39,015 nt of DNA, taken from assembly GCA_018304565.1 (NCBI GenBank), contig JAGVVX010000007.1, positions 1-39,015 on the forward strand. The letters run 5' to 3'. The position numbers and the translations under genes were made by a program. This document shows, in pieces, positions 3,577 through 39,015 of this stretch (position 1 is its first letter; the number at the start of each line of letters is the position of its first letter). This stretch comes from Candidatus Aenigmatarchaeota archaeon (GTDB lineage: Archaea > Aenigmatarchaeota > Aenigmatarchaeia > GW2011-AR5). A model generated the notes under the pieces. The model made no database searches. It was not told the origin of the DNA and worked only from the letters and a program-made list of their open reading frames with translations.

Positions 3577-3728
3577 GGGCGCGTAGCTCAGTTTGGATAG
3601 AGCATCAAGCTTTGGCGTGTAAGCCTTCTAAGCTGAGGGCCGCGGGTTCGAAAAGCCCTTTTCTTCCAGAGAAAAACGCTTGCGGAAAAGAAACCGGGAG
3701 AAGGGGTACGAAATTCCCGTCGCGCCCA
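3577..3728 (+). tRNA. tRNA-Arg(TCT) with two introns: ~15 nt inside the anticodon stem (about 3607-3621, position 28/29-29/30) and ~62 nt in the T-loop (about 3653-3714, position 59/60)
   Basis: Acceptor GGGCGCG/CGCGCCC+A. D arm GCTC-AGTTTGGATA-GAGC. After removing 15 nt the anticodon arm is TCAGC-CTTCTAA-GCTGA. Variable region GGGCC. T stem GCGGG...CCCGT with T-loop TTCGAA|T restored only after removing ~62 nt. The spliced length is 75 nt. Confidence 0.7.
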
Positions 3729-3760: not shown

Positions 3761-3810
3761 ACCCCGGAGAGCAAAGCTCTCCGGGGTAATACTTCGGGCT
3801 TTAGCCCGAA
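3761..3810 (+). repeat. Two tandem perfect hairpins in the tRNA-Arg trailer
   Basis: ACCCCGGAGAGC-AAA-GCTCTCCGGGGT (12 bp, 3761-3787) and TTCGGGC-TTTA-GCCCGAA (3793-3810). Same CGGAGAxC...GxTCTCCG style as the hairpins in tRNA introns elsewhere in the window. Confidence 0.7.
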
Positions 3811-7723: not shown

Positions 7724-7780
7724 GATATCAATCTTGTTTATTCATATTTTAAAAGTAAAGAAAAAAGCATATTTATACGA

Positions 7781-7903
7781 GGAATACCACCTGTCTTTAG
7801 GCGGCGGTATTATTATTCGTGGTATTCCGGTATAAAAGAATCCACATGTGTTATTAGTGGTATTTCACAGAAATACCACCATCTTCAGGCCGTGGATTCT
7901 TTT
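7781..7903. promoter_or_regulatory. Palindromic module pair in the pheS/glyS divergent intergenic region (R1 copy 7781-7833, R2 copy 7834-7903)
   Basis: R1: GGAATACCAC-N28-GTGGTATTCC followed by GGTAT. R2: nested AAAAGAATCCAC...GTGGTATTTC-ACA-GAAATACCAC...GTGGATTCTTTT. Read on the minus strand, R1 is followed by TCGTATAAATAT (TATA-like) about 45 nt before the pheS ATG. Confidence 0.6.
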
Positions 7904-10535: not shown

Positions 10536-10643
10536 ACTCAGGATACCACCTATCTTTAGATGCTGGAGGAAACCATTAAACCATCAGTAATTACAAGTGG
10601 TTTCCTGGTATCACAACCATCGTTTGAAAACGATGGTTGTGAT
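10536..10643 (-). promoter_or_regulatory. Upstream cassette A (inverted copy of cassette B at 35305-35406), directly abutting the CBS/HPF-like gene start
   Basis: Read toward the gene it has three parts. First, the 16-bp palindrome ATCACAACCATCGTTT/AAACGATGGTTGTGAT plus ACCAGGAAACCAC. Then a ~35-nt variable AT-rich (TATA-like) spacer. Then ATCTAAAGATAGGTGGTATCCTGAGT-ATG. The proximal 26 nt is identical to cassette B, and the distal ~47 nt is near-identical. Confidence 0.7.
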
Positions 10644-11000: not shown

Positions 11001-11609
11001 CTAAGGCTTCATTCTCTGGATGATGTAGTAAGTTGCATCGCCTTCGTTGTCAACAACGGCCCAGAGCATACGTGCGCGGATGTTATGAGCCAGCCTTACG
11101 GAACGCGAAAGTTCCTGGAAAGACAGTGTGTAGTCCTCAGGCACGCAAAACACTATCCATTTTGTGTGCTCTTTTGCACTCTTTGGGCCTTTCTTAAGCT
11201 GTACACCACGTTCATAGACACGGAAATCGCAGCCAAACTTGAAGCCAGTCCGTACTAGAAGCCCGCGCTCTCTTAGGTCTTCGTAAACACGATAGCGCTC
11301 GGGAAACCTCCTATCCAGGTTCCGCGCATGGTCATATAGTTCCTGGAAATTTATCTGTTTCCCGCTTGAAAACACTCTTATTCTTCCTCGCTTAAGAAGC
11401 AGGCAGGCTTCGACCATAGCGAGTTCAAGCCTGTCGCCTATCTGCTTGCCATAGTAACCAGGCTCATAAATCTTTTCAGACCCTTTCCATGCAACAACCT
11501 TGCTTTCTTCCAGCTGCGTGTCTATAATTTCCTTTATTTGTTCAGGTTCTACATAGTCCGGTTTATCTTCCCATTCTTCTAATTCCTTATTCTTTTTACT
11601 CATAATCAT
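11001..11609 (-). CDS. endA: tRNA-splicing endonuclease (EndA), short single-unit form
   Basis: 202 aa. C-terminal catalytic-domain signature RTGFKFGCDFRVYE, then EHTKWIVFCV and RSVRLAHNIR segments typical of archaeal EndA. Confidence 0.85.
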   Translation of the reverse strand: MIMSKKNKELEEWEDKPDYVEPEQIKEIIDTQLEESKVVAWKGSEKIYEPGYYGKQIGDRLELAMVEACLLLKRGRIRVFSSGKQINFQELYDHARNLDRRFPERYRVYEDLRERGLLVRTGFKFGCDFRVYERGVQLKKGPKSAKEHTKWIVFCVPEDYTLSFQELSRSVRLAHNIRARMLWAVVDNEGDATYYIIQRMKP

Positions 11610-12487: not shown

Positions 12488-12566
12488 AAAATCGCCCGGT
12501 TGCCTGTGATTTGTAACTTTGTACTGCAGCTGGGTAGTTCTTGTATCCATAATTATGCTTATACAA

Positions 12567-12704
12567 GGAATACCACCAGCCTTTAGACGGTGATATTATT
12601 AGTGGTATTCCGGTATGCTCAGAAAGCAAAGCTTTCTGGCATGCCAAAATTGCTCTGCAATTTTGAGCATAAGAGGATCCACAAATAAGATTTGTGGATC
12701 CTCT
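12567..12704. promoter_or_regulatory. Palindromic module array in the hydrolase/trmY divergent intergenic region
   Basis: R1 copy at 12567-12616 (GGAATACCAC-N25-GTGGTATTCC-GGTAT, ~85% identical to 7781-7833). Hairpin ATGCTCAGAAAGC-AAA-GCTTTCTGGCAT at 12615-12642. Hairpin CAAAATTGC-TCT-GCAATTTTG at 12645-12665. 16-bp perfect palindrome AAGAGGATCCACAAAT-AAG-ATTTGTGGATCCTCTT at 12670-12704. Confidence 0.65.
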
Positions 12705-12732
12705 TTATAAGCATCTGCGTTATTTTTTAATT

Positions 12733-13361: not shown

Positions 13362-13610
13362 TTATTTGGATTCTGAGCATCCGTTATTTCGGCACACACA
13401 TGTTAACACAATATCTGGATTATCCGGGCCACATTTAGCTATAGAAGCATATGCAACAGTCGTACATCTATCACAAAACTCTACGCAGTCCGCATCTCTG
13501 TTGCAAGAAAGTGTATTTGTTAAATTCTTTTGCGATCCAGTAGAAAGCGCATAAATTAAAACAACAACTAAGATAGTTATTGCAACAATCACTCCAGTTT
13601 GTTTCTTCAT
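13362..13610 (-). CDS. Small membrane-anchored or secreted cysteine-rich protein (82 aa, 8 Cys)
   Basis: N-terminal hydrophobic helix (GVIVAITILVVVLIYAL) followed by a Cys-rich ~55-aa domain. No family recognised. Confidence 0.5.
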   Translation of the reverse strand: MKKQTGVIVAITILVVVLIYALSTGSQKNLTNTLSCNRDADCVEFCDRCTTVAYASIAKCGPDNPDIVLTCVCRNNGCSESK

Positions 13611-13669
13611 TGTTACTATCTTACAAAACAGAAATATATATATATGTATACAAGATCGAAGTATTGTTT

Positions 13670-14392
13670 ATGATTACTCAAAATACACCTCTTCTTAAAA
13701 TAAATGAAGATATTGCAGAGTTCGTTGGCGCTTTAATTGGAGACGGATATATTTACACTAACAAAAACAAATATATCATAGGATTTACTGGAAATCCTAT
13801 CACAGATAAAGAATATTATGAATATCTAAGAAGATTGATAAATATAGCTTGGAAAAAAGAAGTCAAAATAAAATTAAGAGGGAGAGGCATTAGAATTGTT
13901 ATTAATTCTAAGAATATAGTTAATTTTTTGATAAATGAAATACAAATTAAACACGGAATCAATAAAAGCGAATCTGTAGTAATACCAGAAGTCATGACCA
14001 AAGACTGGAGTTTGACTAAATTAGTAATAAGAGGTATTGTTGATACAGATGGCTCTGTTTTTGTTTCTAAAAAGCCCGGCATAGATATGTACCCTTCTAT
14101 AGAAATTACAACATCGAGCCCTGAATTAGCTTTTCAACTAAGGAATATCCTATTAAGCCGTGGTTTTAGAGTTGCGAAAATATGGAGTTATAAATCTAAA
14201 TTAAGTAAAAGAATTTCTTATAAAGTTCCTCTAAACGGACTTGAAAATGTTGGTAAATGGTTAAAAGAAATAGGCTTTTCCAATCCTTACAAACTGAAAA
14301 GAGCAAAAGAAATATGGGATGGGAGGGATTTGAACCCTCGACATTCCCGACGTAACACAAAAGTGTTATGCTCCACGGTTCCTGCTCAGTAG
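13670..14392 (+). CDS. Free-standing double-motif LAGLIDADG homing endonuclease-like protein
   Basis: Two LAGLIDADG motifs (FVGALIGDGYI and VIRGIVDTDGSV). Start taken at the internal ATG (MITQNTPLL). The last ~25 codons read antisense through the 3' part of the convergent tRNA gene. Confidence 0.85.
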   Translation: MITQNTPLLKINEDIAEFVGALIGDGYIYTNKNKYIIGFTGNPITDKEYYEYLRRLINIAWKKEVKIKLRGRGIRIVINSKNIVNFLINEIQIKHGINKSESVVIPEVMTKDWSLTKLVIRGIVDTDGSVFVSKKPGIDMYPSIEITTSSPELAFQLRNILLSRGFRVAKIWSYKSKLSKRISYKVPLNGLENVGKWLKEIGFSNPYKLKRAKEIWDGRDLNPRHSRRNTKVLCSTVPAQ

Positions 14393-14447
14393 GACTTCAG
14401 CTTCACATCTTTCGATCGTGTGCTCTCCCATGCTGAGCTACCATCCC
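14315..14447 (-). tRNA. Intron-containing tRNA, class II-like (long variable arm); tentative Ser(CGA) with ~50-nt intron at 37/38
   Basis: Minus strand: acceptor GGGATGG/CCATCCC+A. D arm GCTC-AGCATGGGA-GAGC. T arm GAGGG-TTCAAAT-CCCTC. The best anticodon arm is ACACG-AT-CGA-A|intron|T-TGTGT followed by a 15-nt variable arm. The isotype is uncertain: the position-26 spacing is awkward, and discriminator A is unusual for Ser. Confidence 0.65.
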
Positions 14448-14869
14448 TAATTAACTTCAAACGCCTTTTCAATACTCTTTCTCATATCAGGGGATATTTC
14501 AAGGCTCCTAAGCTCGTCTTTCGTTATCCACCTGTATTCTGTATGCTCGTTCGGATCTATCTTTACAGCAAAGCTGTCAGCTTGTATTATAAAATCGCTT
14601 TCAACAGAATCCTTTCCGGCATACTTGTAGTAAAACTCGTTGTATTTCTTGATTATTCTGATTTGTAGTTCCGTTTCCTCTAAAAACTCCCTTACAAGTG
14701 CTTCTTCGTCACTCTCGTTTCCTTCAACCCTTCCGCCAGGTATTTCCCAGAGATTAGGCCAAAGTACCCTTTCTTTTGTCCTTTTGACTACTAGCAATTT
14801 CCCTTTTTGGAACAAGGCACCACCTACTATTCTTGTTGCGGAAGCTTCCTTTCCGCAAGCGCTTTGCAC
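14447..14869 (-). CDS. Nudix hydrolase
   Basis: Nudix box GGRVEGNESDEEALVREFLEETEL. The track ORF (to 15016) has an N-terminal extension that is simply a read-through of a tRNA-like gene. The likely start is GTG at ~14869, or a nearby TTG. Confidence 0.75.
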   Translation of the reverse strand: MQSACGKEASATRIVGGALFQKGKLLVVKRTKERVLWPNLWEIPGGRVEGNESDEEALVREFLEETELQIRIIKKYNEFYYKYAGKDSVESDFIIQADSFAVKIDPNEHTEYRWITKDELRSLEISPDMRKSIEKAFEVN

Positions 14870-14890
14870 GTTTATCCTGTGCAAAGGGCT

Positions 14891-14998
14891 TCTCGAACCG
14901 CCGACCCTCACGTCTCTGTCCTGAGATTTATCTGTGTCCCGAAGAACTCCGTTCTTCAAGATAACAGCGTGATGCTCTACCTGCTGAGCTATCGAGGC
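14891..14998 (-). tRNA. tRNA-Asn(GTT)-like 5' portion (acceptor 5' strand through T-loop, with ~48-nt intron at 37/38) lacking any 3' T-stem/acceptor strand; split-tRNA half or relic
   Basis: Minus strand: GCCTCGA-TA-GCTC-AGCAGGTA-GAGC-A-TCACG-CTGTTA|intron|A-CGTGA-GGGTC-GGCGG-TTCGAG, then AAGCCCTTT... The expected CCGCC-TCGAGGC is not found in the following ~450 nt or elsewhere in the window by eye. Confidence 0.55.
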
Positions 14999-25717: not shown

Positions 25718-25796
25718 TTGGCAAGAGCCATCTAAATAGGTTTCTCTGCCCGTGATTCGGAGATGCAGCTTCTCCCGAGATCAAGAACGATATGAT

Positions 25797-26207
25797 TTAG
25801 GCGTGCCTTGCTATTTTTTGTTTCGCCAGGCTCGAAAGTATCACGGCATTGACGCGTTTTTCGAGCTTCATTAGCCTTTCGTCCATCTTTTTATCTGCGT
25901 CAGAAGTGTTTTCCGGAATTTCTGTTTGTTTGCCGCTTTCCTCTGATGCCGCGATTTCAATCCTGCTTACGAAGTCATTGACCTTCACAATAAGCATGTT
26001 GACGTTCTCTGCAAGGTCTGAAACCCTGCTTATCATCTCGGAATTGACCTTTACGATGTCCTCAACCAGCTCCTGGTTGGACTTTATTATCTCAAGAACT
26101 TCCCTTATAGTTTCATGAGAAATAGTCCTTTTTTCAACTACTTCCATCTTCCTTTCCAGGCGCCTTATTGGGCTCAAGGGAACAAGTTCGTACTCTTCTT
26201 CGTCCAT
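25797..26207 (-). CDS. Coiled-coil protein of unknown function, first gene of the pilus-like operon
   Basis: 136 aa, E/K/V-rich heptad-like sequence. No family recognised. Confidence 0.5.
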   Translation of the reverse strand: MDEEEYELVPLSPIRRLERKMEVVEKRTISHETIREVLEIIKSNQELVEDIVKVNSEMISRVSDLAENVNMLIVKVNDFVSRIEIAASEESGKQTEIPENTSDADKKMDERLMKLEKRVNAVILSSLAKQKIARHA

Positions 26208-26215
26208 GACAAATC

Positions 26216-26296
26216 CCTTTCTTTTCTAAAAGAAAGGCCTTTGTATGCTCAAAGAACCAAAGGTTCTTTGGCATCTCAGAAACCTTTGGTTTCTGA
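26216..26296. repeat. Three tandem perfect hairpins immediately upstream of the pilus-operon start codon
   Basis: CCTTTCTTTT-CT-AAAAGAAAGG (26216-26237). ATGC(T)CAAAGAACC-AAA-GGTTCTTTGGCAT (26245-26274). TCAGAAACC-TTT-GGTTTCTGA (26276-26296). Confidence 0.7.
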
Positions 26297-26445
26297 AGAT
26301 TTCCCAAAGAAAATTCAAAGACCTTCCATTTTTTCTTGATATCTTAACTTAATTATTATAATCTCAGACGGTATATAAAGATTGTCAAAATTGTATAAAA
26401 TCAAAGAAATTGACTTTTTATTTTCTTTTGCTTTTAGTAAAAGAC

Positions 26446-30393: not shown

Positions 30394-30649
30394 GGGCCGG
30401 TAGCTTAGCCTGGTAAGAGGAGAAACTACATTCCTGCGGAGAACGAAGTTCTCCGAGGTCTCAGAGAAGCTCCGCTTCTCTGCAGATCTCCCTCTACCCT
30501 CTTCCTAGAAAGAAGTAAGGTTGGAAGGAGAATAAGATATCTCTTCTGAGGAAAGAGCACCTGTCTTATACGACCTGTTCGGATAATAAACTGAATCCAA
30601 ACAGAACTAGGCTAGCAGGGGGTCGTGAGTTCAAATCTCATCCGGCCCA
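30394..30649 (+). tRNA. tRNA-Ile(TAT) with two introns: ~140 nt in the D arm (about 30418-30557, position 22/23-24/25) and ~43 nt at 37/38 (about 30571-30613)
   Basis: Acceptor GGGCCGG/CCGGCCC+A. D arm GCTT-AGCCTGGT-AAG|...|C. Position 26 is A. Anticodon arm CCTGT-CTTATA|...|A-GCAGG. Variable region GGGTC. T arm GTGAG-TTCAAAT-CTCAT. Spliced length is 73 nt. The canonical intron folds into a 10-bp hairpin. Confidence 0.65.
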
Positions 30650-30655
30650 TCCTTC

Positions 30656-30781
30656 CCTTTCTTTCAGAAAGAAAGGTCTGGATCAACCCCAAAGAAACCA
30701 TGTAATATCTTGGGAGAAGCTGCTTCTCCGAGATCCCGGAATCCAAAGGATTTCGGGAATTCCAAAAAGCCGCGCTTTTTG
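30656..30781. repeat. Four tandem short perfect hairpins in the tRNA-Ile trailer
   Basis: CCTTTCTTT-CAG-AAAGAAAGG (30656-30676). GGAGAAG-CTG-CTTCTCC (30713-30729). CCCGGAATCC-AAA-GGATTTCGGG (30735-30757). CAAAAAGC-CGC-GCTTTTTG (30763-30781). Confidence 0.7.
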
Positions 30782-30984
30782 AGAAATTTCATCCAAACTT
30801 GGGAAAAATTGAAAATTCCATTGCAGAACAACGAAAATTATTTATATGGCACCCAGTGATTAGTCACTTATTAAAAATAAAGTGGTGTCAAAAATGGCAA
30901 AGAGAAGAAAGAAATAATCCGATAAAGTCAAGATGAAGTCTAGAAACTGTTTAGAATATTGATATTTTTTCTTCAATCCCTGAC

Positions 30985-31485
30985 TTATCCAAGATAAGTC
31001 GTTTTCTCATCCTTGAATCTGAGCGTCTGCCAGCTCGTTGAAAGCTTTTTGCATACAGTCCGCAGTTCATCTTCCAGTTCATTATTCCAGAAGTCCCAAG
31101 TCTTCTTTATCCACTTTGCCGTCTCCCTTTCGTCAGGTTTCATGATGAGAAGGTTGTTTTCCCATTTGAGGACTTGTATCTTCTTGTAAAGCCTGAATAA
31201 CTTCTCCCTTTCAGCTTCAGTAAGCATGCTCTGCTCAAAAATGCCGGAAAAGGTTTCAGCCCCGCCTATGATAGGTTCAATTATTTTTTCGGTGAATGCG
31301 AAAAGTTTGTCAGATATCTCAAGTCTTATCTGCTCGAAAAGCTTTTCGTCTTTTTCGTCTTCTTGGAATTCTATTTTGAATGTGTTTTTCAATTCGTTCA
31401 AGTGCGGCAAATCAAATTTATCTTGCATTTTTTTGTATTTTTCGAGAATTTGTGGATTCATGTGATCAACCAGCGCTGAATTCAT
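30985..31485 (-). CDS. Hypothetical conserved-looking protein (166 aa, acidic, helical)
   Basis: ORF with normal composition for this genome. No family recognised. Confidence 0.55.
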   Translation of the reverse strand: MNSALVDHMNPQILEKYKKMQDKFDLPHLNELKNTFKIEFQEDEKDEKLFEQIRLEISDKLFAFTEKIIEPIIGGAETFSGIFEQSMLTEAEREKLFRLYKKIQVLKWENNLLIMKPDERETAKWIKKTWDFWNNELEDELRTVCKKLSTSWQTLRFKDEKTTYLG

Positions 31486-31565
31486 CGCTCCTTGCAGTTC
31501 TAAGTAACCAATAAACTATTAAAAAGCATTTTCCATAAAAAACCAATACAAACGGTGAATTTTCC

Positions 31566-32153
31566 ATGAAAATAGTGCTGAAAATAGGCGGATCGATTTC
31601 AATAAATGAAAACGGACCAGTTGAAGCTTACTTCAGAAAGCTTTTGCCAGTGATAAGACAAATAAAAACAAGGCACCGGCTGATTTTATGGAAAGAAGAA
31701 ATGGAATGGATAGCCATTGAGCTGCTGAGAGTGAATGTAAGGTTTCTTTCCTCGCTGCTCAATATGAAACCCCTGTACAGGTTGGAAGAAATAAGCACAA
31801 AAACAACCGGCGTTATAGGCGGCATAAAGCCCGGCAGGAGCACTGATGCAAATGCAGCTTACTGCGCGGCGAAGATAAAGGCTGATTTGTTCGTAAAACT
31901 TACAAACGTTGACGGAATTTACGATAAAGATCCGCGTAAACACAAGGACGCCAGGAAACTAGAAACGCTAAGCTTTGCTGACCTGAAGAAATTTTCACAA
32001 TCCGGGAAGCCCGGAAGTTACGGCATACTTGACAGGCTTGCAATAGAAACAATAACCAAGCACAAGATAAAGACAGTTATTATGAACGGAAAGGACCCGA
32101 AAAACATACTCAAACTAATCAACGGAGAAAAGATAGGAACTCTGATACATTAA
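31566..32153 (+). CDS. Amino-acid-kinase family protein, UMP kinase (PyrH)-like but lacking the Gly-rich loop segment
   Basis: KIGGS N-terminal motif, GGIKPGRSTDANAAYCAAKIKADLFVKLTNVDGIYDKDP core typical of archaeal PyrH. About 28 aa shorter than typical, and no VVGGG motif after residue 45. Confidence 0.6.
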   Translation: MKIVLKIGGSISINENGPVEAYFRKLLPVIRQIKTRHRLILWKEEMEWIAIELLRVNVRFLSSLLNMKPLYRLEEISTKTTGVIGGIKPGRSTDANAAYCAAKIKADLFVKLTNVDGIYDKDPRKHKDARKLETLSFADLKKFSQSGKPGSYGILDRLAIETITKHKIKTVIMNGKDPKNILKLINGEKIGTLIH

Positions 32154-32194
32154 CTGTTTCTTAAAAAGATTGTCACAATAAGTGTCTTATTTCA

Positions 32195-32285
32195 GGGCTT
32201 GTAGTCTAGCGGCTATGACTTTTTATTAGTAGAATACGCTACCCTCACATGGTAGAGATCCCCAGTTCGAATCTGGGCAAGCCCA
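32195..32285 (+). tRNA. tRNA-Val(CAC) with ~18-nt non-canonical intron between D stem and anticodon stem (about 32220-32237, position 25/26)
   Basis: Acceptor GGGCTTG/CAAGCCC+A. D arm GTCT-AGCGGCTA-TGAC. Then TTTTTATTAGTAGAATAC. Then G-CTACC-CTCACAT-GGTAG-AGATC-CCCAG-TTCGAAT-CTGGG. Confidence 0.75.
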
Positions 32286-32944
32286 TACATTTTCAAATAC
32301 TTTCTTTTTGAAAGAGCTTGTTTTATCCGTTTTTTATTTTTGAATCCTATATTTACAATATAATTGTGAATATCTTGTTTTCTTTGCAAGGATATGCGCC
32401 ATATAACCCTTCTTTTATAATCACGTTTTTTATTGGTAAAAGAATATATTGTAGGAGAAAATCCTAACATTTTTAATAGAGACTTTATTTCGTAAGCAAA
32501 AATTTTGTTTGTGCAGTTCCACGATAAAATCAGATAATAACTATTACCACTTTCACGCCAATATACAGTCCCATCTGTATCAATTAAACCACGTAAAAAG
32601 TTTTTACCACATATTTTACTTGAAAATACAAATTTAGGTACTCTAAGTTTATCTAACTTTGGGCCTTTTGGAAAGCCAGTCTTTAATAAAAGATTGTAAG
32701 TATTTTTACAAGCTATTCTTAATTCAATGACATTATAAGGATCGCCTCTTTTTACAATACGAAAAATATGGAAATCAAAAACTTTCGCATATAACTTCTT
32801 GACGTAATTGAAATATTGTTTCTCGGTGCTCGATGTTCCGTATCCGACTTCATTTGGTTTAGATGCAAGCCAACCATCACCTGCATGAATACCACATAAT
32901 TCAGCATAGTTTCCTATTAAGCTTCTATCGACTAATCTAACCAT
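32213..32944 (-). CDS. Free-standing double-motif LAGLIDADG homing endonuclease-like protein (paralog of 13670..14392)
   Basis: Motifs ELCGIHAGDGWL and FLRGLIDTDGTV. The last ~24 codons read antisense through the tRNA-Val body (stop in the D-loop). Confidence 0.85.
   Translation of the reverse strand: MVRLVDRSLIGNYAELCGIHAGDGWLASKPNEVGYGTSSTEKQYFNYVKKLYAKVFDFHIFRIVKRGDPYNVIELRIACKNTYNLLLKTGFPKGPKLDKLRVPKFVFSSKICGKNFLRGLIDTDGTVYWRESGNSYYLILSWNCTNKIFAYEIKSLLKMLGFSPTIYSFTNKKRDYKRRVIWRISLQRKQDIHNYIVNIGFKNKKRIKQALSKRKYLKMYGLAQIRTGDLYHVRVAYSTNKKS
32263..32287 (+). repeat. Direct repeat copy 1 (inside tRNA-Val: T-stem to 2 nt past the discriminator)
   Basis: CAGTTCGAATCTGGGCAAGCCCATA, identical to 33018-33042. 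Confidence 0.85.
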
Positions 32945-33017
32945 TTTATTAAGATTGATAAAATTTGATATAAACTTATAGCCTTTTTATTGTACAGATT
33001 TCAAGATATAAGCTAAA

Positions 33018-33042
33018 CAGTTCGAATCTGGGCAAGCCCATA
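33018..33042 (+). repeat. Direct repeat copy 2: orphan tRNA-Val 3' end fragment
   Basis: CAGTTCGAATCTGGGCAAGCCCATA, 755 bp downstream of copy 1. The two copies bracket the LAGLIDADG gene and its upstream region. Confidence 0.85.
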
Positions 33043-33076
33043 AAACCCTTAAAAACTCTGGGTTTATCTTGATACA

Positions 33077-34114
33077 ATGGCTGTTGCTTCTGCGCCCGGG
33101 AAAGTTCATTTGATAGGTGAGCATGCGGTTGTCTACGGAGAACCGGCTATATTTGCAGCTGTTGGAATGCGAACATTCGTTACAGCAGAAAAGTCGGATA
33201 GAGTCGGATACAAAGATAAACGATGGGGCCACAACGATTCCTGGTCTCTTGAAGACGTCGTGGCTGCAACAGATGAAGTTGTTGGGTTGTGGAACGCGTG
33301 CGCGCAAAAGCAAGAGTTTTCTGAGCTTTTTTCTAATATAAAGGCAAACAGCTATGAGAACTACAAAAAGGCCGCTATCGGGGCAGCTATGAAAAATCTA
33401 GGAATTAACGGCGGAATTTCCATCAGTATAGAGTCCCAGTTGCCAGCAGGCGCCGGCCTAGGCTCTTCAGCCTCTCTTTCGGTAGCCGCCGTAAATGCAA
33501 TAGCCGCCGAATACGGAAAAAGCGTTTCGAAAGAAGAGACAAACCGAATCGCCTACGAGCTTGAAAAGATTATTCACGGCACGCCCTCTGGAGGCGACAA
33601 TTCGGCCTGCTGCTATGGTGGCCTTATATGGTTTCAAAAGCCGAATACAATTCTGTCGCTTAAAGAAGAAATACCTTACAAACTTGAAAACTTCATCCTG
33701 GTTTATACAAACCAGCCGGAAAAAACAACCGGTGAATTAGTACAAAGTGTAAGAAATCTGGAAGAAAACCTCAGAAATCACTGCGTTCATGAAATAGGCA
33801 GATTGGCAAAAGATATGCGCGAAGCACTGAAAATCAGGGACCTTGAAACAATGAAAAGAACAATAAACAGGAATCAACAGATACTTGCAAAGCTCGGCGT
33901 GTCAACACCCGAGATTGATGAGATGGTTTCAGCGATTAAAGAAAAGGGCGGGGCTGCCAAGCTTTGCGGTGCGGGCGGCGGCGGCATGGTTCTTTGTTAT
34001 CACGAAAAGAAGAATATATTGCTAGAAACAATCCGCGACTTAGGTTATGAACCTTTGGAGACAGATTTAGCTGTAGAAGGCGTGAAAATTGAAAATGAGA
34101 ACAGCAATACCTAA
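33077..34114 (+). CDS. mvk: Mevalonate kinase
   Basis: APGKVHLIGEHAVVYG N-terminal motif. GHMP motif PAGAGLGSSASL. C-terminal KLCGAGGGG. Confidence 0.85.
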   Translation: MAVASAPGKVHLIGEHAVVYGEPAIFAAVGMRTFVTAEKSDRVGYKDKRWGHNDSWSLEDVVAATDEVVGLWNACAQKQEFSELFSNIKANSYENYKKAAIGAAMKNLGINGGISISIESQLPAGAGLGSSASLSVAAVNAIAAEYGKSVSKEETNRIAYELEKIIHGTPSGGDNSACCYGGLIWFQKPNTILSLKEEIPYKLENFILVYTNQPEKTTGELVQSVRNLEENLRNHCVHEIGRLAKDMREALKIRDLETMKRTINRNQQILAKLGVSTPEIDEMVSAIKEKGGAAKLCGAGGGGMVLCYHEKKNILLETIRDLGYEPLETDLAVEGVKIENENSNT

Positions 34115-35285
34115 AGGCTTTGAAAAAGAATCCAGAGAGATGAAAAGCCTTAACAATAAAATTCTTGCCTTTCTCAGGAAAAGATATAATGTAGAAAAAT
34201 ACCCAAATGTGCCAAAGAAGAAATCCCTTGAAGGTGAAGCATGCGTAGAAGCTTTTCCGATGCAGGGGATTCTAAAGTATCATGGCATGGCTGACTGGCA
34301 CTACCGCACGGCCTTTTTCCCTTCAGTTTCAATGTGTAACGATGCAGCAAAAACCGTTACTTATGTCAGGTTTGATCAGAAACTTGACAAAGACCATGCA
34401 ATAGTAAACGGCAAAAAAATGGAAGGTCGTGAACTCGACAGGATAAAACAAACACTTGACTTCATTCGTAAAATCACCGGCGCAAAAACAAAAGCCTTTG
34501 TCTATTCAAAAAATATCCTGAAAGCCCAGAAAACAGGAAAAGGACTAGGCACAAGCGCATCCGCTTCTGCCGCACTTGCCCTTGCTACGATAGAAGCCGC
34601 TCTTGGGGACGATTACTCTTCAAACAGCAGATTTGTTACAACATGCGCCAGATTTCTTTCGGGCTCTGGATGCCGCTCAGCAGCCGGCGGCGTAGCGCTG
34701 TGGCTTTCCTACCCGGGCATCGACCACGAGGATTCTTTTGCTATAAGGCTTGATAGCAAGCAGCAGTTCAAGGATGTAGATCTAATAACAGTCCCTGTAG
34801 ACTCAAGAATAGGCCTGAAAACAGAAATGGCACATAAAGACGCACCGAAATCGCCTTTTTTCAAGACGTGGATGAGCCTGAGAGAAAAACACATCTGGAA
34901 GATTTTTGATGCTGTAAGCAAGAAAAATTGGAAAAAGTTGGGTGAGCTTGCTGAGCTGGATACAATACTTCTCCATGGAACGACAATGAGCGGCGGCGAC
35001 AGGAAACTGATTGGATGGGAACCCGAGACTATAAAATTAATGCGCGCTGCAAATGATTTGCGTGAAAGCAGTGTGCCTGTCTATTATTCTATTGATACAG
35101 GGCCTACAACCGTGCTTATTACGCAGGAAAAATACTCAAGAGAAGTTGTTAGTCATATAGAATCTCTGGGTTTCACCGACATCGTAACGGGAAAAATAGC
35201 CGGGCCTGCAGGAACTATAAGTAAATTACAAGGAGAAAAAGAATTTGTTATTTCATTAGATGATGTTTCCGGTCAGCTTAAATAA
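34089..35285 (+). CDS. Diphosphomevalonate decarboxylase-family protein (likely phosphomevalonate decarboxylase, given IPK and no PMK nearby)
   Basis: GHMP-superfamily motif GKGLGTSASASAALALA. MDD-like N-terminus (EAFPMQGILKYHG). Start uncertain (34089, 34095 or 34140). Confidence 0.7.
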   Translation: MKMRTAIPKGFEKESREMKSLNNKILAFLRKRYNVEKYPNVPKKKSLEGEACVEAFPMQGILKYHGMADWHYRTAFFPSVSMCNDAAKTVTYVRFDQKLDKDHAIVNGKKMEGRELDRIKQTLDFIRKITGAKTKAFVYSKNILKAQKTGKGLGTSASASAALALATIEAALGDDYSSNSRFVTTCARFLSGSGCRSAAGGVALWLSYPGIDHEDSFAIRLDSKQQFKDVDLITVPVDSRIGLKTEMAHKDAPKSPFFKTWMSLREKHIWKIFDAVSKKNWKKLGELAELDTILLHGTTMSGGDRKLIGWEPETIKLMRAANDLRESSVPVYYSIDTGPTTVLITQEKYSREVVSHIESLGFTDIVTGKIAGPAGTISKLQGEKEFVISLDDVSGQLK

Positions 35286-35304
35286 GCTTTGAAAAATTAT
35301 CATT

Positions 35305-35406
35305 ATCAACAACCATCGTCTGAAAACGATGGTTGTGATACCAGGAAACCACAGTTATATTTGTGACTTACTGGTTCCATATCTAAAGATAGGTGGTATC
35401 CTGAGT
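35305..35406 (+). promoter_or_regulatory. Upstream cassette B (inverted copy of cassette A at 10536-10643), abutting the IPK start codon
   Basis: ATCA(A)CAACCATCG...CGATGGTTGTGAT palindrome plus ACCAGGAAACCAC. Then a TATA-like GTTATATTTG. Then ATCTAAAGATAGGTGGTATCCTGAGT-ATG. Confidence 0.7.
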
Positions 35407-36207
35407 ATGACAAAGCCAATAATAATTTTGAAGATTGGCGGCTCGCTTATAGCGCCGAAAACGGCAAAAAAACCCACGGTTGATTTTAAGACACTGAAAA
35501 GAATATGCATGGAAATAGGCTCAGCGTACAAAAAAATAAAAAATAAGAAAAATCTTGTCATAATCCATGGTGCCGGCAACTTTGGCCACCTTATTGCTGC
35601 ACGCACTGGAATTCATAGGGGCATCAAAAGCGAAAAAAATCTTATTGATTTTGCAGAAACGCAGCGATTACAGAACCAATTGAATGTGATAGTTACAAAA
35701 GAGCTTATCAAAAATGATGTACCCGCTTTTCCTTTTCAGTCTTCAGGACACGCAGTTATGGAAAAAGGCAGGCTGAAAAAATTCTCCTTGGCAGCAATAA
35801 ATCAGCTTCTCAAGACAGGCGTTGTTCCTGTTGCTTATGGCGTGCCAGCCTGTGATATACACCAGGGATGTTCAATACTTTCTGGCGATGAGATTGTGCC
35901 ATATCTTGCAAAAAGACTGAAAGCAAAGGAAATAATCCACGCAACAGACGTAGATGGTGTTTTCACGATTGATCCGAAAAAAAGCAGGAAAGCAAGGCTC
36001 ATAAGAATGATAACAAGAAAGAATTTCTACAGCGTCAAGAAAGCACTTTCAGGTTCATTGGGTGTTGATGTTACCGGTGGCATGAAAGAAAAGGTAAGCC
36101 TTTTAAGCCTTAGGGTAAGGGCGCAAATTATAAACGGGAAGAAGAATAACCTTATAAAGAACGCCATACTCGGTAAAAGTAAGCAAGGTACAGTGATAGA
36201 ACTGTGA
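35407..36207 (+). CDS. ipk: Isopentenyl phosphate kinase
   Basis: KIGGSLI N-terminal motif and HGAGNFGH (the IPK-type His-containing Gly loop). Amino-acid-kinase fold length. Start moved to MTKPIII. Confidence 0.8.
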   Translation: MTKPIIILKIGGSLIAPKTAKKPTVDFKTLKRICMEIGSAYKKIKNKKNLVIIHGAGNFGHLIAARTGIHRGIKSEKNLIDFAETQRLQNQLNVIVTKELIKNDVPAFPFQSSGHAVMEKGRLKKFSLAAINQLLKTGVVPVAYGVPACDIHQGCSILSGDEIVPYLAKRLKAKEIIHATDVDGVFTIDPKKSRKARLIRMITRKNFYSVKKALSGSLGVDVTGGMKEKVSLLSLRVRAQIINGKKNNLIKNAILGKSKQGTVIEL

Positions 36208-36821
36208 TGCAAACAGAGCATATAGAAGTTGAACGGAGAGCCAGAGGAACATTCCTTCCTCCCGGAGCAGAGCCGCTTTATACTGCACATATATTTGACG
36301 TTTACACTGTTGCTCAGCCTTCTTTAATGGAAAGAATCCGCTGGGCAAGAGTTTCGTATTTCCAACTAGTGAAAAGCCGAAGAGAAGTTACAAGAAAAAC
36401 ATTCACTCATGGAGAATACGTAGAGTCAGAATTGGATGAAAAGCCCACGGCGTATATTGCCCGTCTTCTTAAGAAAGGAGGCTGTCCGCGCGTTATTGTT
36501 GCAGGCAGAAGGCACGCGTATAATGTGCATGGTCTCACCGTGTGCAACGATAGAATTATCAGAGCTACCATGAAAGGAATTGAAGATTTAGGCGCCTGGA
36601 CAGAGATGGAAAGGCTCGTGCATTCAGCAGATGAAATACCCGATGCAAGACAAGAAGTTTATGACGGGTTTTTGAGGGTTGGCGTGGCAAGGGACAGGCT
36701 AGTCATAGAACCTTATCCTGTCTTGAACCTTAAAGCCAACGGCCGTGTTGCTGGCAGATTAGTTTCTACTTCAACTTCTTCCCAAGAGGATGCTTTAGCA
36801 GCTCCTCGACTGAAACAATAA
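36207..36821 (+). CDS. Hypothetical protein (~204 aa) translationally coupled to IPK
   Basis: Its ATG overlaps the IPK TGA (TGATG). It is the only long ORF in this interval. R-rich and GC-richer than its neighbours. The last ~18 codons overlap the convergent IDI gene. Confidence 0.5.
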   Translation: MQTEHIEVERRARGTFLPPGAEPLYTAHIFDVYTVAQPSLMERIRWARVSYFQLVKSRREVTRKTFTHGEYVESELDEKPTAYIARLLKKGGCPRVIVAGRRHAYNVHGLTVCNDRIIRATMKGIEDLGAWTEMERLVHSADEIPDARQEVYDGFLRVGVARDRLVIEPYPVLNLKANGRVAGRLVSTSTSSQEDALAAPRLKQ

Positions 36822-37218
36822 GCCATGGCGTGTAGATTTTCTGGTTTCTTATTATATCTTTCAGCAATTCGCCAAGAGAAACCCATTTGTAGCCATAAGC
36901 GTGCTGTTCACTGGGTTTCAGTTCGCCATTAAACTCTGCTATCAGCAACCGGCAGTGCTCGTTTTCGCATTTCTCGCCGTATTCAGCAAAATAATTGAAA
37001 CCGCCTATATCTTCAACTTTCAGGCTTTCAATTCCCCATTCGCCTAGAAGGAACCGGCTGGCCGCTTCCTGCATCGTCTCGTCCCTGTTGCCAAGGTGTA
37101 ATGGATGGCTTGCGCCTGCCAGGTCCCACAGCCTGTCAAAAAGCCTGTGCTTCCTGTGCTGGAGAAGTATTTTCCTGTCGCTGTTGTAAATCAACATTGT
37201 GAAGGTCCCCTTTTTCAT
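36766..37218 (-). CDS. idi: Nudix-fold protein, likely short type-1 isopentenyl-diphosphate isomerase
   Basis: WDLAGASHPLHLGNRDETMQEAASRFLLGEWGI, ENEHC and TPW segments parallel the type-1 IDI segments (W.N..C.HP, ENEVC, SPW). Adjacent to the mevalonate genes. Confidence 0.6.
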   Translation of the reverse strand: MKKGTFTMLIYNSDRKILLQHRKHRLFDRLWDLAGASHPLHLGNRDETMQEAASRFLLGEWGIESLKVEDIGGFNYFAEYGEKCENEHCRLLIAEFNGELKPSEQHAYGYKWVSLGELLKDIIRNQKIYTPWLIVSVEELLKHPLGKKLK

Positions 37219-37273
37219 CTACAAGCAGAAGCATTTGTTCTTCCATATAAGCACCAGTAACGATTATAAACAC

Positions 37274-37369
37274 AATCCACCACAAAAATGTGGTGGTATT
37301 TCTTTGAAATACCACAGATCATATATGTGGATTTGTTTATACAGGCAACCATTGTTTAAAAACAACGGT
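37274..37369. promoter_or_regulatory. R2-type nested palindrome plus degenerate ACCATTGTT/AACAACGGT hairpin in the IDI/hydrolase divergent region
   Basis: AATCCAC-N12-GTGGTATTTC-TTT-GAAATACCAC-N11-GTGGATT (37274-37333), the same architecture as 7834-7903. Overlapping CCACCACA-AAAA-TGTGGTGG. ACCATTGTT-TAAA-AACAACGGT at 37348-37369. Confidence 0.65.
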
Positions 37370-37417
37370 ATGCCATGTATCAATAAGGTTTTTATCTTTA
37401 AAGGCCTTCCTTTTAGG

Positions 37418-38188
37418 ATGCAGAAAGTTCAGTTTGTAAATAACAGGGGGGAAAAACTCGCCGGCATATTTTGCAGGACAGAAAAAGAAAAAGCGCCGTG
37501 TGTAATTATATGCCACGGCCTGGGCAGCAGCAAGGACAACAAAGAGCCTCTGATGAAGGCCTTTTCAGAAAACGGTCTTGCTTCCATGGCCTTTGATTTC
37601 TCTGGCCATGGTGAAAGTCAGGGCAGCTTTGAAAAACTGACAGTTACAAATGCAGTTGCCGATTCAAAGGCAGCAATAGATTACGCCTCCTCTCTGGCTT
37701 CTGTTGATGCAAGCAGAATAGGCATTATGGGCCACAGTTTCGGCGGTTCTGTATCATTAATCGGAGCAGCCGGCGACAAACGGATAAAATCCATCGTTGT
37801 TTCCGCACCGGTGACAGATTTCTTGGAAACGCTCAAAATGCTTTCAGACTTTGACACAAAGATTGGCAACCTGGCAGTCTGGAAAGATAAGGGCTATACA
37901 CATTATCTCAATGCTGGCCAGAAATACATGAAACTCGAATATCCATTCTTTGAGGACGCAATGAAATTCGATATGAAGAAGATAGCAACAAAGATAAAGT
38001 CTCCGGTGCTCTTCATTCAAGGGAATAAAGACAGGGTATCGCCGATAAGCCAGTCCAAGAAAATGTTTGATATTCTTTCATGCGAGAAGGATATGAAGAT
38101 CCTGGAATGCGGCCATTATTTCGAAGAGCAGGACCTGGAAAACCTTATAGAACTTTCACAAAACTGGTTCATCAAGTGGCTTGGCTAG
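37418..38188 (+). CDS. Alpha/beta hydrolase, paralog of 11714..12487
   Basis: MQKVQFVNNRGEKLAGIF...VIICHGLGSSK parallels the MQKKVFFKNKHKERLCGIL...VIVCHGFTSSK N-terminus of the paralog. GHSFGG nucleophile elbow. QGNKDRVSP. CGH. Confidence 0.8.
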   Translation: MQKVQFVNNRGEKLAGIFCRTEKEKAPCVIICHGLGSSKDNKEPLMKAFSENGLASMAFDFSGHGESQGSFEKLTVTNAVADSKAAIDYASSLASVDASRIGIMGHSFGGSVSLIGAAGDKRIKSIVVSAPVTDFLETLKMLSDFDTKIGNLAVWKDKGYTHYLNAGQKYMKLEYPFFEDAMKFDMKKIATKIKSPVLFIQGNKDRVSPISQSKKMFDILSCEKDMKILECGHYFEEQDLENLIELSQNWFIKWLG

Positions 38189-38374
38189 CTTTTTCCTCTT
38201 TGCAACCTTTGTCAGGTATCCGGCAACCCTGTTTCTGACCCTTTTGTGGGGTATTATAGTCAGTTCGCCAAGAACTTCCTTGTTTTTCCCGAAGTCAGCA
38301 CTGAATTTCCCAGGATAAGATTCAATGAGGCCAAAAGTCAGGCGCTTTATGCCCTTTGTTTTTATTCTTCCCAT
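38156..38374 (-). CDS. rps17e: Ribosomal protein eS17
   Basis: MGRIKTKGIKR...IIPHKRVRNRVAGYLT pattern typical of S17e. 72 aa. Confidence 0.85.
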   Translation of the reverse strand: MGRIKTKGIKRLTFGLIESYPGKFSADFGKNKEVLGELTIIPHKRVRNRVAGYLTKVAKRKKLAKPLDEPVL

Positions 38375-38432
38375 ACAACCAACAAATAATTGCAGCTCAT
38401 ACTTTTAAACCTTCCGTGTTTAGATTACCCCT

Positions 38433-39015
38433 ATGAAACCAAAGGCGTTTTTATGCAGATCGCCCATAGGCTTATTTGCGTTCTCCGGGACCGGCGAGCT
38501 GCTCCATTACAGTCTTTTTAGCAGAAAGCCACAAACAGCGGTCGCTGAGTTTGAAACAGCGTCCTTGGAATTGCAGGATTTTGATGTTTCAGAAAGCCCG
38601 AACAACTTCAGGTTCTTGAGGAAAAACTTCCGGGAGTATGCTGAAAACCTGGGGTTTGCTAAGAGCCAAGAGCTGACGGAATTCCTCTCTAATTTTACAG
38701 AAATAATCTCCAAGAAAAGGATGAAATCGCTCATAAATCGCGACAGGCTAATCATTCAGGCCAGCAATTCCCTTGAAGACATCGTAAAGATACAAAACCT
38801 TGTCAATGAGAGGCTTCGCGAGTGGTATTTGCTGCATTATCCTGAACTCAAGCAGAAAGAAATGCCCGAGTGGATAATGAAATACGGCAACAGGGCAAAT
38901 TCTCCTAACTTCAAAGAAAGTGTAGGCATTGACCTTACGGAAAGCGACGAGAAGATACTCTTAGATTCAGCTCGTTTGGTACTGTCAATAACAGAACAAA
39001 GGAAAAAACTGGAAA
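38433..39015 (+). CDS. nop5: Nop5 (Nop56/58-family C/D box sRNP protein), 5' partial; continues past the window end
   Basis: Open frame from ATG ~38433 to the window edge, so it is not in the ORF track. Contains the LREWYLLHYPEL signature of the Nop domain region. The track ORF 38507..38755(-) is antisense to it. Confidence 0.8.
   Translation, partial: MKPKAFLCRSPIGLFAFSGTGELLHYSLFSRKPQTAVAEFETASLELQDFDVSESPNNFRFLRKNFREYAENLGFAKSQELTEFLSNFTEIISKKRMKSLINRDRLIIQASNSLEDIVKIQNLVNERLREWYLLHYPELKQKEMPEWIMKYGNRANSPNFKESVGIDLTESDEKILLDSARLVLSITEQRKKLE

Follow-up and report, generated by a model that had tools for sequence, protein, structure and literature searches.

Short palindromic hairpin units in and around tRNA genes of a DPANN archaeon: probable small mobile elements

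The REP (repetitive extragenic palindromic) and REPIN sequences of bacteria are short, mostly intergenic palindromes that are thought to be non-autonomous mobile DNA and possibly also to act as RNA hairpins (PMC3733652). In mitochondria, the double-hairpin elements of Allomyces and the GC clusters of yeast are modules whose spread is suspected to be helped by intron-encoded endonucleases, as summarized in PMC4478555, which cites Paquin et al. 2000. In archaea, work of 2010 on Thermoproteales described the transposition of tRNA introns by a mechanism called unknown in a review, and how introns are gained at many positions of archaeal tRNAs has been an open question since (PMC4090602). A model based on Caldiarchaeum holds that mobile elements integrate into tRNA genes and leave duplicated tRNA fragments behind, a process linked to intron gain (PMC3293823). 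Here, we analyse clusters of short hairpins in a 39,015-nt stretch of DNA from a groundwater member of the Aenigmatarchaeota, which belong to the DPANN archaea (contig JAGVVX010000007.1). This whole stretch is called the window; coordinates are window positions unless a comparison locus in another assembly (labels of the form L005) is named. We consider it probable that these hairpins are small, non-autonomous palindromic mobile DNA that spreads and turns over in DPANN genomes.

Matched sites that are filled in one genome and empty in another were obtained at several places. Orthologous loci were found through homologs of the HTH/PDDEXK protein that flanks the tRNA-Ile(UAU) gene of the window. 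In L125, where this protein is 89% identical, the tRNA-Ile(UAU) has the same exons, canonical intron and D-arm intron, and a 54-nt double hairpin of the D-arm intron, M1, is absent exactly: L125 reads ...GAGAAACTACGTT|TCTCCCTCTACC..., the window ...GAGAAACTACATT-54 nt-TCTCCCTCTACC.... Another 54-nt unit, M3, is missing from the orthologous element of L125 (10170-10225), whose flanks are about 92% identical. At the tRNA-Val locus, L005 carries a 54-nt double hairpin (M2) inside an element otherwise identical in L073. A first-pass annotation of the window had hypothesized that the hairpins are small modules that move or duplicate and had called for a comparison of orthologous loci; that comparison gives 54-nt presence/absence at three orthologous sites (M1, M3 and L005/L073). 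A further unit, M7, interrupts one copy of a repeat whose paralogous copy (7773-7840) is uninterrupted, and L053 differs from the hairpin block of the tRNA-Ile trailer by one additional 27-nt hairpin unit.

Since orthologous sites differ by discrete sizes, we take the unit to be a hairpin of about 27 nt and the pair to be the common moving piece. The two intron hairpins listed in the first-pass annotation make up, together with their short outer stems, a single such pair (M1). In the basic unit, a perfect inner stem of 8-9 bp closes a loop of usually 3 nt, and below it come one bulged base and an outer stem of 2-4 bp; in the 54-nt pair, the first hairpin has its bulge 5' and the second has it 3'. 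The feet of eight aligned units read ATGC/GCAT, CCTNCG, TCT/AGA or CTC/GAG. The unit of L005 is flipped relative to M1 of the intron, so that orientation to transcription is not fixed.

The same units are dispersed among unrelated contexts, again in keeping with what the first-pass annotation had suggested. M1 recurs with about 89% identity at two other places, both beside protein genes: directly 3' of a thermosome stop codon and in opposite orientation in L126 (10293-10346), and between two protein genes in L127 (2643-2696, a JGI metagenome contig). All 22 proposed pairs are kept in the three copies (66 of 66 cells paired, none broken), although four pairs have both partners replaced (G-C by A-U or vice versa) and one has become G.U; when the structure is slid by 1-3 columns as a control, only 41-52% of cells pair. 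The linker AGGTCT and the flanks CCT.CG and CTGCAG are conserved as well. As the stems are fully compensated, it is the hairpin itself that is maintained. This upkeep of perfect arms could reflect selection for the hairpin, through recognition by a nuclease or a role in RNA, or template switching from arm to arm during replication. Correction of quasipalindromes by such switching is established mutagenesis biology.

A second component of the family, element A, is about 55 nt long and consists of a covarying outer helix, a TC/TC internal loop, a CCTTTCTTT/AAAGAAAGG stem and a CCCCAAAGAAA tail; it includes the CCCTTTCTTT...AAAGAAAGG hairpin. A scan of 185,579 species-representative genomes with the pattern TCCCTTTCTTT-N2-6-AAAGAAAGG gave matches in at least 118 stretches, and among the matches listed about half came from DPANN archaea (Aenigmatarchaeota, Micrarchaeota, Pacearchaeota, Woesearchaeota, Nanoarchaeota and AR5). 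The conservation is partly circular, the stem being fixed by the pattern, but the archaeal copies also share, outside it, an outer helix of 5-6 bp closed by A-T, the TC/TC loop and a (C/T)CCCAAAGAAA tail 7-10 nt downstream. This tail is found in 44 of 150 pattern matches, all 44 at loci named archaeal. The outer helix covaries: a strand forms a duplex of -3.3 kcal/mol with its own partner vs -1.3 kcal/mol with others, a difference that none of 2000 permutations reach. The hairpin family is thus wider than first noticed, extending over several DPANN groups and including conserved non-palindromic parts.

About 57 copies of element A were sorted by inspection, and some 34 of these (about 60%) lie in or adjoin tRNA or small RNA (sRNA) genes, mostly in T-loop introns. 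Sixteen are in T-loop introns (after TTCRA, position 58/59), four in D-loop introns, six in anticodon-loop introns, six in tRNA trailers, one at a tRNA 5' end and one inside a C/D-box-like sRNA. The others abut the start codon of a divergent gene (10 copies) or a stop codon (5), or lie elsewhere (8). In L081 the T-loop insert consists of element A plus a few bases, and L070 and L081, which belong to one genome, have an identical element A of about 60 nt in the T loops of two tRNAs with different T stems and acceptor ends. Two loci of one Micrarchaeota genome (L015 and L074) carry element A with the same inserted double hairpin. Double hairpins are often found between the outer helix and the tail (window 26245, L053, L005, L015 and L068); as 41 distinct aligned copies are uninterrupted at this place, the copies with double hairpins are derived, that is, they carry insertions. 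Discrete length, presence/absence, dispersal, identical copies within a genome, both orientations and unconserved positions all fit mobile DNA, and from the polymorphism together with the dispersal we infer that the elements move as DNA.

Several other observations concern element A. The scan of viral contigs in IMG/VR gave no match, hence no sign of a viral origin, and Rfam searched with a permissive E-value on 26150-26400 returned nothing real (best score 34 bits vs a threshold of 80). A role of the tail as a promoter (transcription factor B recognition element/TATA box) was ruled out, as the tail also occurs inside introns and between convergent genes; a triple helix or alternative pairing of the CCCCAAAGAAA tail, sought by eye, found no consistent support. 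In L092, element A appears to interrupt a C/D-box-like sRNA (GATGATGA ... CTGA), the insert being flanked by the direct repeat GAAACTGGAGCTC. Multi-copy repeats of some bacteria contain the same TCCCTTTCTTT-loop-AAAGAAAGG hairpin with GAC(N)AAAGAAA behind it and a GC-rich hairpin alongside, a layout that recalls the archaeal element A with its tail (L021, L037, L043, L048, L051, L087 and L104 of Lacisediminimonas profundi, L009/L058 of Rheinheimera, and others); either convergence or a shared constraint may account for these look-alikes.

The annotation had further proposed that the large tRNA introns are accretions of hairpins that splicing tolerates, and both M1 and element A agree with this. 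In minimum-energy folds of the pre-tRNA-Ile from the window and from L125, the intron-closing helix (AGAGGAGA with UCUCUUCU) and the internal intron hairpin are both kept, and the M1 insert is predicted to add two independent hairpins (-102.1 vs -73.6 kcal/mol); elsewhere, whole T-loop introns consist of element A. Of the tRNA-Ile D-arm intron itself, modules make up only 54 of about 138 nt. In the more distant L126 (flanking protein 60% identical), the tRNA-Ile lacks the D-arm intron and has a T-loop intron, so that intron content turns over within the phylum. The 54-nt unit is nested within an intron, is not itself an intron and also occurs outside tRNAs. For the element-A T-loop introns only relaxed versions of the bulge-helix-bulge motif could be drawn; for the T-loop intron of the tRNA-Arg, which carries another module described below, two 3-nt bulges around a 4-bp TTCG/CGAA helix are possible by eye.

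Mobile hairpins of this kind would behave as follows. Units of 54 or 27 nt would insert into and beside element A, and copies would survive only where they are harmless, namely in tRNA introns cut out by the splicing endonuclease, just past tRNA 3' ends and in short gene spacers. Because about 88% of the window lies in long open reading frames (ORFs) and the genome encodes an intron-removing endonuclease, survival in introns, trailers and spacers is what one would expect, and nested insertion would lengthen introns and trailers. The mover may be a nuclease that recognises hairpins, such as an HUH/Y1 transposase of the sort that serves REP elements, or a homing endonuclease acting with break repair.

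Module B, a covarying hairpin between two short motifs, has the same kind of distribution as element A. Its pattern occurs twice in the window vs none expected and was also found in a D loop (L086), in a tRNA trailer (L063, Pacearchaeota), beside a truncated 5' piece of a tRNA (L014) and in non-tRNA spacers (L014 and L110, Woesearchaeota). Exact direct repeats of at least 11 nt flank 7 of 50 element A copies vs 2.2% at random positions. At the end of the tRNA-Ile trailer, a putative decayed duplicate of a T-arm segment is suggestive only (12 of 500 shuffles reach the same match). In L014 (2920-3140), three successive tRNA gene starts (TGGGCTCGT..) with module B and element A between them look like nested insertions, each duplicating its target. 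All of these features are collected in Table 1.

Table 1. Coordinates of tRNA genes, hairpin units, elements A and B, and direct repeats. L-numbers denote comparison loci; all other positions are in the window.
Feature	Position	Strand	Remarks
tRNA-Arg	3577-3728		anticodon-region insert and T-loop intron; read from sequence
Module B (AGCCCTTT-hairpin-CGCTTGCGGAAA)	3654-3688	plus	5' end of tRNA-Arg T-loop intron
Two tandem hairpins, tRNA-Arg trailer	3761-3787, 3793-3810	plus	12 bp and 8 bp; aligns with other trailers
M7, 54-nt double hairpin, then 16-bp hairpin	12615-12668, 12671-12705	plus	ATGC..GCAT subfamily like M3
tRNA with intron	14447-14315	minus	read from sequence
Module B	14850-14890	minus	after T loop of tRNA-Asn-like gene
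Hairpin GAAGAAC-GGA-GTTCTTC	14941-14957	minus	tRNA-Asn-like intron
tRNA-Asn(GUU)-like 5' part	14998-14891	minus	canonical intron carries hairpin 14941-14957; module B after T loop
Decayed copy of GGGAGAAGCTGCTTCTCCGA hairpin	25757-25776	minus	one arm mismatch; 19/20 bases match M5
Element A interrupted by M3	26205-26312	plus	abuts start codon of minus-strand ORF 25797-26207; tail TCCCAAAGAAA at 26302-26312; covariance-model match
Hairpins upstream of pilus operon	26216-26237, 26250-26270, 26276-26296
M3, 54-nt double hairpin interrupting element A	26245-26298		within 26205-26312
tRNA-Ile(UAU)	30394-30649	plus	exons same in orthologs L125 and L126; fold keeps acceptor and T arms
D-arm intron of tRNA-Ile(UAU)	~30417-30554		ends ambiguous by GAG repeat
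Canonical 37/38 intron of tRNA-Ile(UAU)	30571-30613
M1, 54-nt double hairpin in D-arm intron	30433-30486	plus	inner stems 30437-30455 and 30462-30482; without counterpart in L125
Hairpin CGGAGAAC-GAA-GTTCTCCG	30437-30455		tRNA-Ile D-arm intron
Hairpin CAGAGAAGC-TCC-GCTTCTCTG	30462-30482		tRNA-Ile D-arm intron
Element A, tRNA-Ile trailer	30650-30697	plus	h1, TC/TC internal loop, h2 CCTTTCTTT/AAAGAAAGG, tail CCCCAAAGAAA; covariance-model match 61.7 bits
Perfect hairpins, tRNA-Ile trailer	30656-30676, 30713-30729, 30763-30781
Imperfect hairpin, tRNA-Ile trailer	30735-30759		one G.T pair
M5 double hairpin and third hairpin unit	30709-30762, 30763-30781	plus	89% identical copy in L053 (646-708), upstream of protein gene
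Possible decayed duplicate (AAATTTCATCC) of tRNA-Ile T-arm segment AAATCTCATCC	30784-30794	plus	10/11 bases
tRNA-Val(CAC)	32195-32285		~18-nt insert between D arm and anticodon arm
Direct repeat around element-A insertion	L005/L073		21 nt; tRNA-Val 3' end
Direct repeat around element-A insertion	L050		21 nt
Direct repeat around element-A insertion	L075		18 nt
Direct repeat around element-A insertion	L078		16 nt; tRNA 3' end and trailer
Direct repeat around element-A insertion	L014		12 nt; tRNA 5' end
Direct repeat around element-A insertion	L092		13 nt
Direct repeat around element-A insertion	L053		19 nt; gene start

GA/CT-rich sequence from metagenome assemblies invites the suspicion that the hairpins are palindromes of chance or composition, or assembly artefacts, an explanation that can practically be dismissed. 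The hairpins listed in the first-pass annotation all exist, at most a few bases from where it had placed them, with only the trailer hairpin 30735-30759 proving imperfect, and the sequence blocks it regarded as shared are real (TTCTCCGAG(G/A)TC at 30448 and 30724; CCCTTTCTTT..AAAGAAAGG at 26215 and 30655). The window contains 22 perfect stems of at least 8 bp (loops of 2-6 nt) vs 3.9 +/- 2.0 expected from 100 dinucleotide shuffles, and 14 of at least 9 bp vs 1.0, so that hairpin density exceeds the expectation for its base composition. The hairpins are strongly restricted to non-coding DNA rather than equally common in coding regions, 16 of the 22 being outside long ORFs, in about 12% of the window (binomial P ~7e-11, some calls being adjusted by eye where ORFs run into tRNAs). 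The hairpins are not confined to the surroundings of tRNAs, as the clusters 12615-12705 and 26216-26296 lie between protein genes. DPANN loci totalling 359 kb contain perfect hairpins of at least 8 bp at a density of 4.7 per 10 kb (0.5 in shuffles), and tandem perfect pairs number 37, compared with 7 in 205 kb of bacterial loci and none in shuffles; L050 even has an array of at least seven hairpins with TGTACA linkers between them. Six independent assemblies agree at the tRNA-Ile region (five identical, one differing by a single gap), and homologous copies occur in many independently assembled genomes. Together, the shuffle and cross-assembly tests refute an origin by chance or artefact. Hairpins could, alternatively, be made on the spot by fold-back or template-switch synthesis during replication or break repair, nothing being copied between loci and the breaks possibly being supplied by tRNA-associated LAGLIDADG endonucleases. 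This would suit arms that are almost always perfect, stems that vary from copy to copy, loops that are 3 nt long in 54% of hairpins of DPANN loci (vs 24% in bacterial loci), the direct target repeats of 12-25 nt that often flank element-A insertions, and the LAGLIDADG gene at the tRNA-Val, which takes up the same slot and has a repeat of the same kind. We nevertheless judge it improbable: de novo fold-back synthesis is contradicted by the identity of about 89% between copies of different genomes and contexts, which extends to the neighbours of the loops, the linkers and the flanks, and identical copies stand at different loci of one genome. Moreover, a unit length fixed at 27 or 54 nt points to a defined element rather than to random fold-back products.

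It is also rather unlikely, though less so, that the hairpins are functional RNA elements, such as terminators, blocks against 3' exonucleases, or sites of processing or protein binding, kept by selection in the transcripts of tRNAs and neighbouring genes. Many copies stand directly after tRNA 3' ends or stop codons, all stem substitutions are compensated, and the non-palindromic parts of element A (TC/TC loop and tail) are strongly conserved. Element A begins with the pyrimidine run TCCCTTTCTTT, like the T-rich terminators of archaea, and the tRNA-Ile trailer of L125, which is unrelated throughout and has no element A, has an ordinary run rich in T at this place; at the ten copies next to start codons, the reverse strand reads AAAGAAAGGGA 6-9 nt before the ATG, resembling a ribosome-binding site. 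Positions, however, differ between close relatives (L005/L073 and the L125 comparisons), one and the same double hairpin can point either way with respect to the host transcript, and no Rfam family matches. Copies are located within introns, where a terminator would be harmful. Nor do the 54-nt units resemble intrinsic terminators, since no T run follows them; the pyrimidine arm of element A is often found after genes, but also in introns and at start codons. Turnover, two orientations and intron sites thus weaken a functional reading, less so for element A with its conserved non-palindromic parts. Mobility of the hairpins as DNA, which we prefer, has its own difficulties. Element A is nearly invariant across several DPANN groups, which is odd for selfish DNA, and could have a host function. 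The 54-nt units show no common target sequence and no target duplication longer than 2 nt in any empty/filled pair (none at M1 and M2, at most an AT dinucleotide at M3 and M7), and some cases of presence/absence could be produced by precise loss of a palindrome through slippage. A Pfam scan of 30 ORFs of the window revealed neither a transposase or integrase nor an HUH nuclease. Downstream of element A, five G.T vs three A.C mismatches do not separate a constraint on DNA from one on RNA. Finally, all data come from metagenome-assembled sequence, the agreement of six assemblies at the tRNA-Ile notwithstanding. More tentatively, one may imagine that tRNA introns of DPANN archaea are created and enlarged by an active, enzyme-driven system of portable hairpins (element A, module B and the 27/54-nt units). 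In such a system, element A would be a 'portable intron' that prefers the T loop (58/59) and further tRNA sites for landing and that a splicing endonuclease of broad specificity could remove; 54-nt double hairpins would pile into it afterwards. The driver might be a novel hairpin-specific nuclease, or tRNA-targeting LAGLIDADG endonucleases acting at the same sites.

The window encodes a thermosome, a tRNA-splicing endonuclease, topoisomerase VI, several aminoacyl-tRNA synthetases and a type IV pilus-like operon. Its closest named genome is the Candidatus Aenigmatarchaeota metagenome-assembled genome JACPDL01, syntenic with 31043-39015 at about 90% DNA identity. The sequence of the splicing endonuclease gene (11001-11609) matches catalytic alpha-type subunits. 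Reading by hand gave five tRNA loci, including the tRNA-Ile, for which the earlier reading of a D-arm intron proved right. ARAGORN called one of the five, with the wrong identity (32195-32285 was typed as tRNA-Leu, by hand tRNA-Val(CAC)), and Rfam 15 at its gathering threshold gave two matches in the whole window, both tRNA. Tools that allow canonical introns only mis-type genes such as the latter and, as standard finders miss or mis-type most tRNAs here, the tRNA complements of such genomes are likely under-called. The tRNA-Asn(GUU)-like gene consists of the acceptor 5' strand, D arm, anticodon arm and T-stem 5' strand, followed by module B and a Nudix gene; a search for its 3' end across the window did not find one, and the gene can be read as a split tRNA or as a relic fragment.

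Two LAGLIDADG_3 genes adjoin tRNA loci. One (32213-32944, minus strand) has the complete tRNA-Val(CAC) on one side and, on the other, a second copy of the tRNA 3' end, 25 nt being identical at 32263-32287 and 33018-33042, in a region (32195-33042) that is AT-rich (about 32% GC). All four homologs in other DPANN genomes (L128-L131) abut a tRNA gene 3' end on the opposite strand, and in L128 and L131 a diverged remnant of the tRNA 3' end is found beyond the ORF. Judged from this arrangement, the gene looks like a homing-endonuclease element that would target tRNA T arms and bring a replacement 3' end. On both sides of the tRNA-Val, L005/L006 are 96-97% identical to the window (31691-32149 and 33021-33260), compared with 99.9-100% elsewhere, and they carry a different tRNA-Val allele in which a hairpin block replaces the LAGLIDADG gene; the drop in identity looks like a tract of recombination or co-conversion around a mobile insertion. 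The second ORF (13580-14392, plus strand), 24% identical to the first, ends antisense in the 3' half of a further tRNA (14315-14447), for which a search found no second copy of the 3' end. A PDB sequence search with the LAGLIDADG protein gave no useful match.

Other repeats were seen in the window. A family with a long hairpin, GGAATACCACC ... GGTGGTATTCC, occurs at 7773-7833, 10538-10610 and 12559-12616, just upstream of minus-strand gene starts, and may act as regulatory RNA or bind a protein. Related palindromes, GTGGTATTTC-N3-GAAATACCAC, lie at 7857-7879 and 37293-37315. The long palindrome ACAACCATCGT..ACGATGGTTGT is present in two different gene spacers (10610-10643 and 35309-35336), 97% identical over 31 nt.

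Full-text searching of the literature, both for the motifs and for similar accounts from DPANN archaea, returned nothing relevant. The locus offers elements of defined length (27, 54 and about 55 nt), pairs of sites that are filled in one close relative and empty in another, and the same elements inside and outside tRNAs, so that insertion, spread and tolerance become separable for study; it provides a concrete handle on the growth of archaeal tRNA introns. It also means that the ultra-small genomes of DPANN archaea, commonly regarded as streamlined, harbour palindromic repeats of a dispersed family. If the portable-intron system were true, it would be the first mechanism of archaeal tRNA intron gain that can be dissected from empty and filled sites.

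Among the known systems, the REP/REPIN sequences with their REP-associated tyrosine transposases (RAYTs, Y1 transposases of IS200/IS605 type) are similar in being 20-40-nt palindromes that often come as pairs or arrays, have bulged or mismatched bases and vary between strains. The one-bulge 27-nt hairpins, the mirrored bulges of the 54-nt pairs, the 16 of 22 hairpins in non-coding DNA and the 37 tandem pairs in 359 kb of DPANN loci correspond well to this description. In contrast, no GTAG or CGTC tag stands at the foot of any of the eight aligned units, so that they do not belong to the REP family, and none of the 30 ORFs scanned is RAYT-like; the DPANN host, the 27/54-nt units, the mostly 3-nt loops and the large share inside tRNA introns differ as well. 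Miniature inverted-repeat transposable elements have terminal inverted repeats and a fixed-length target duplication; as the 54-nt units lack the latter, they fall outside this class. PATEs (palindrome-associated transposable elements), which derive from IS200/IS605, have subterminal hairpins at both ends, neither terminal inverted repeats nor target duplications, and presumed single-strand DNA intermediates. Compared with these, 54 nt is far smaller, and neither a conserved tetranucleotide target nor a TnpA was identified here.

The double-hairpin elements of Allomyces and the GC clusters resemble our units in being two-hairpin or palindromic modules in spacers, introns and variable RNA regions that are polymorphic, merge and nest. 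Sequence and host are unrelated; ours is a cellular archaeal genome with tRNA introns cut by a protein enzyme, and GC clusters show a short target duplication, unlike the 54-nt units. In Allomyces, an endonuclease ORF adjoins a duplicated gene 3' end, an arrangement that resembles the tRNA-Val locus of the window. As in the Caldiarchaeum model, inserted DNA is bordered by directly repeated 3' parts of tRNAs, but the inserts here are of 100-750 nt and carry hairpin blocks or a LAGLIDADG gene, whereas the Caldiarchaeum element is of 1.8 kb and has a recombinase. The transposed introns of Thermoproteales, which imply intron gain at the DNA level, show the same pattern as element A of L070/L081, found in two tRNAs of one genome. 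Here, the host is a DPANN archaeon and the elements also occur in trailers, at gene starts and at gene ends. Moreover, unlike in Thermoproteales, the 54-nt units nest in existing introns, and empty and filled sites are both at hand.

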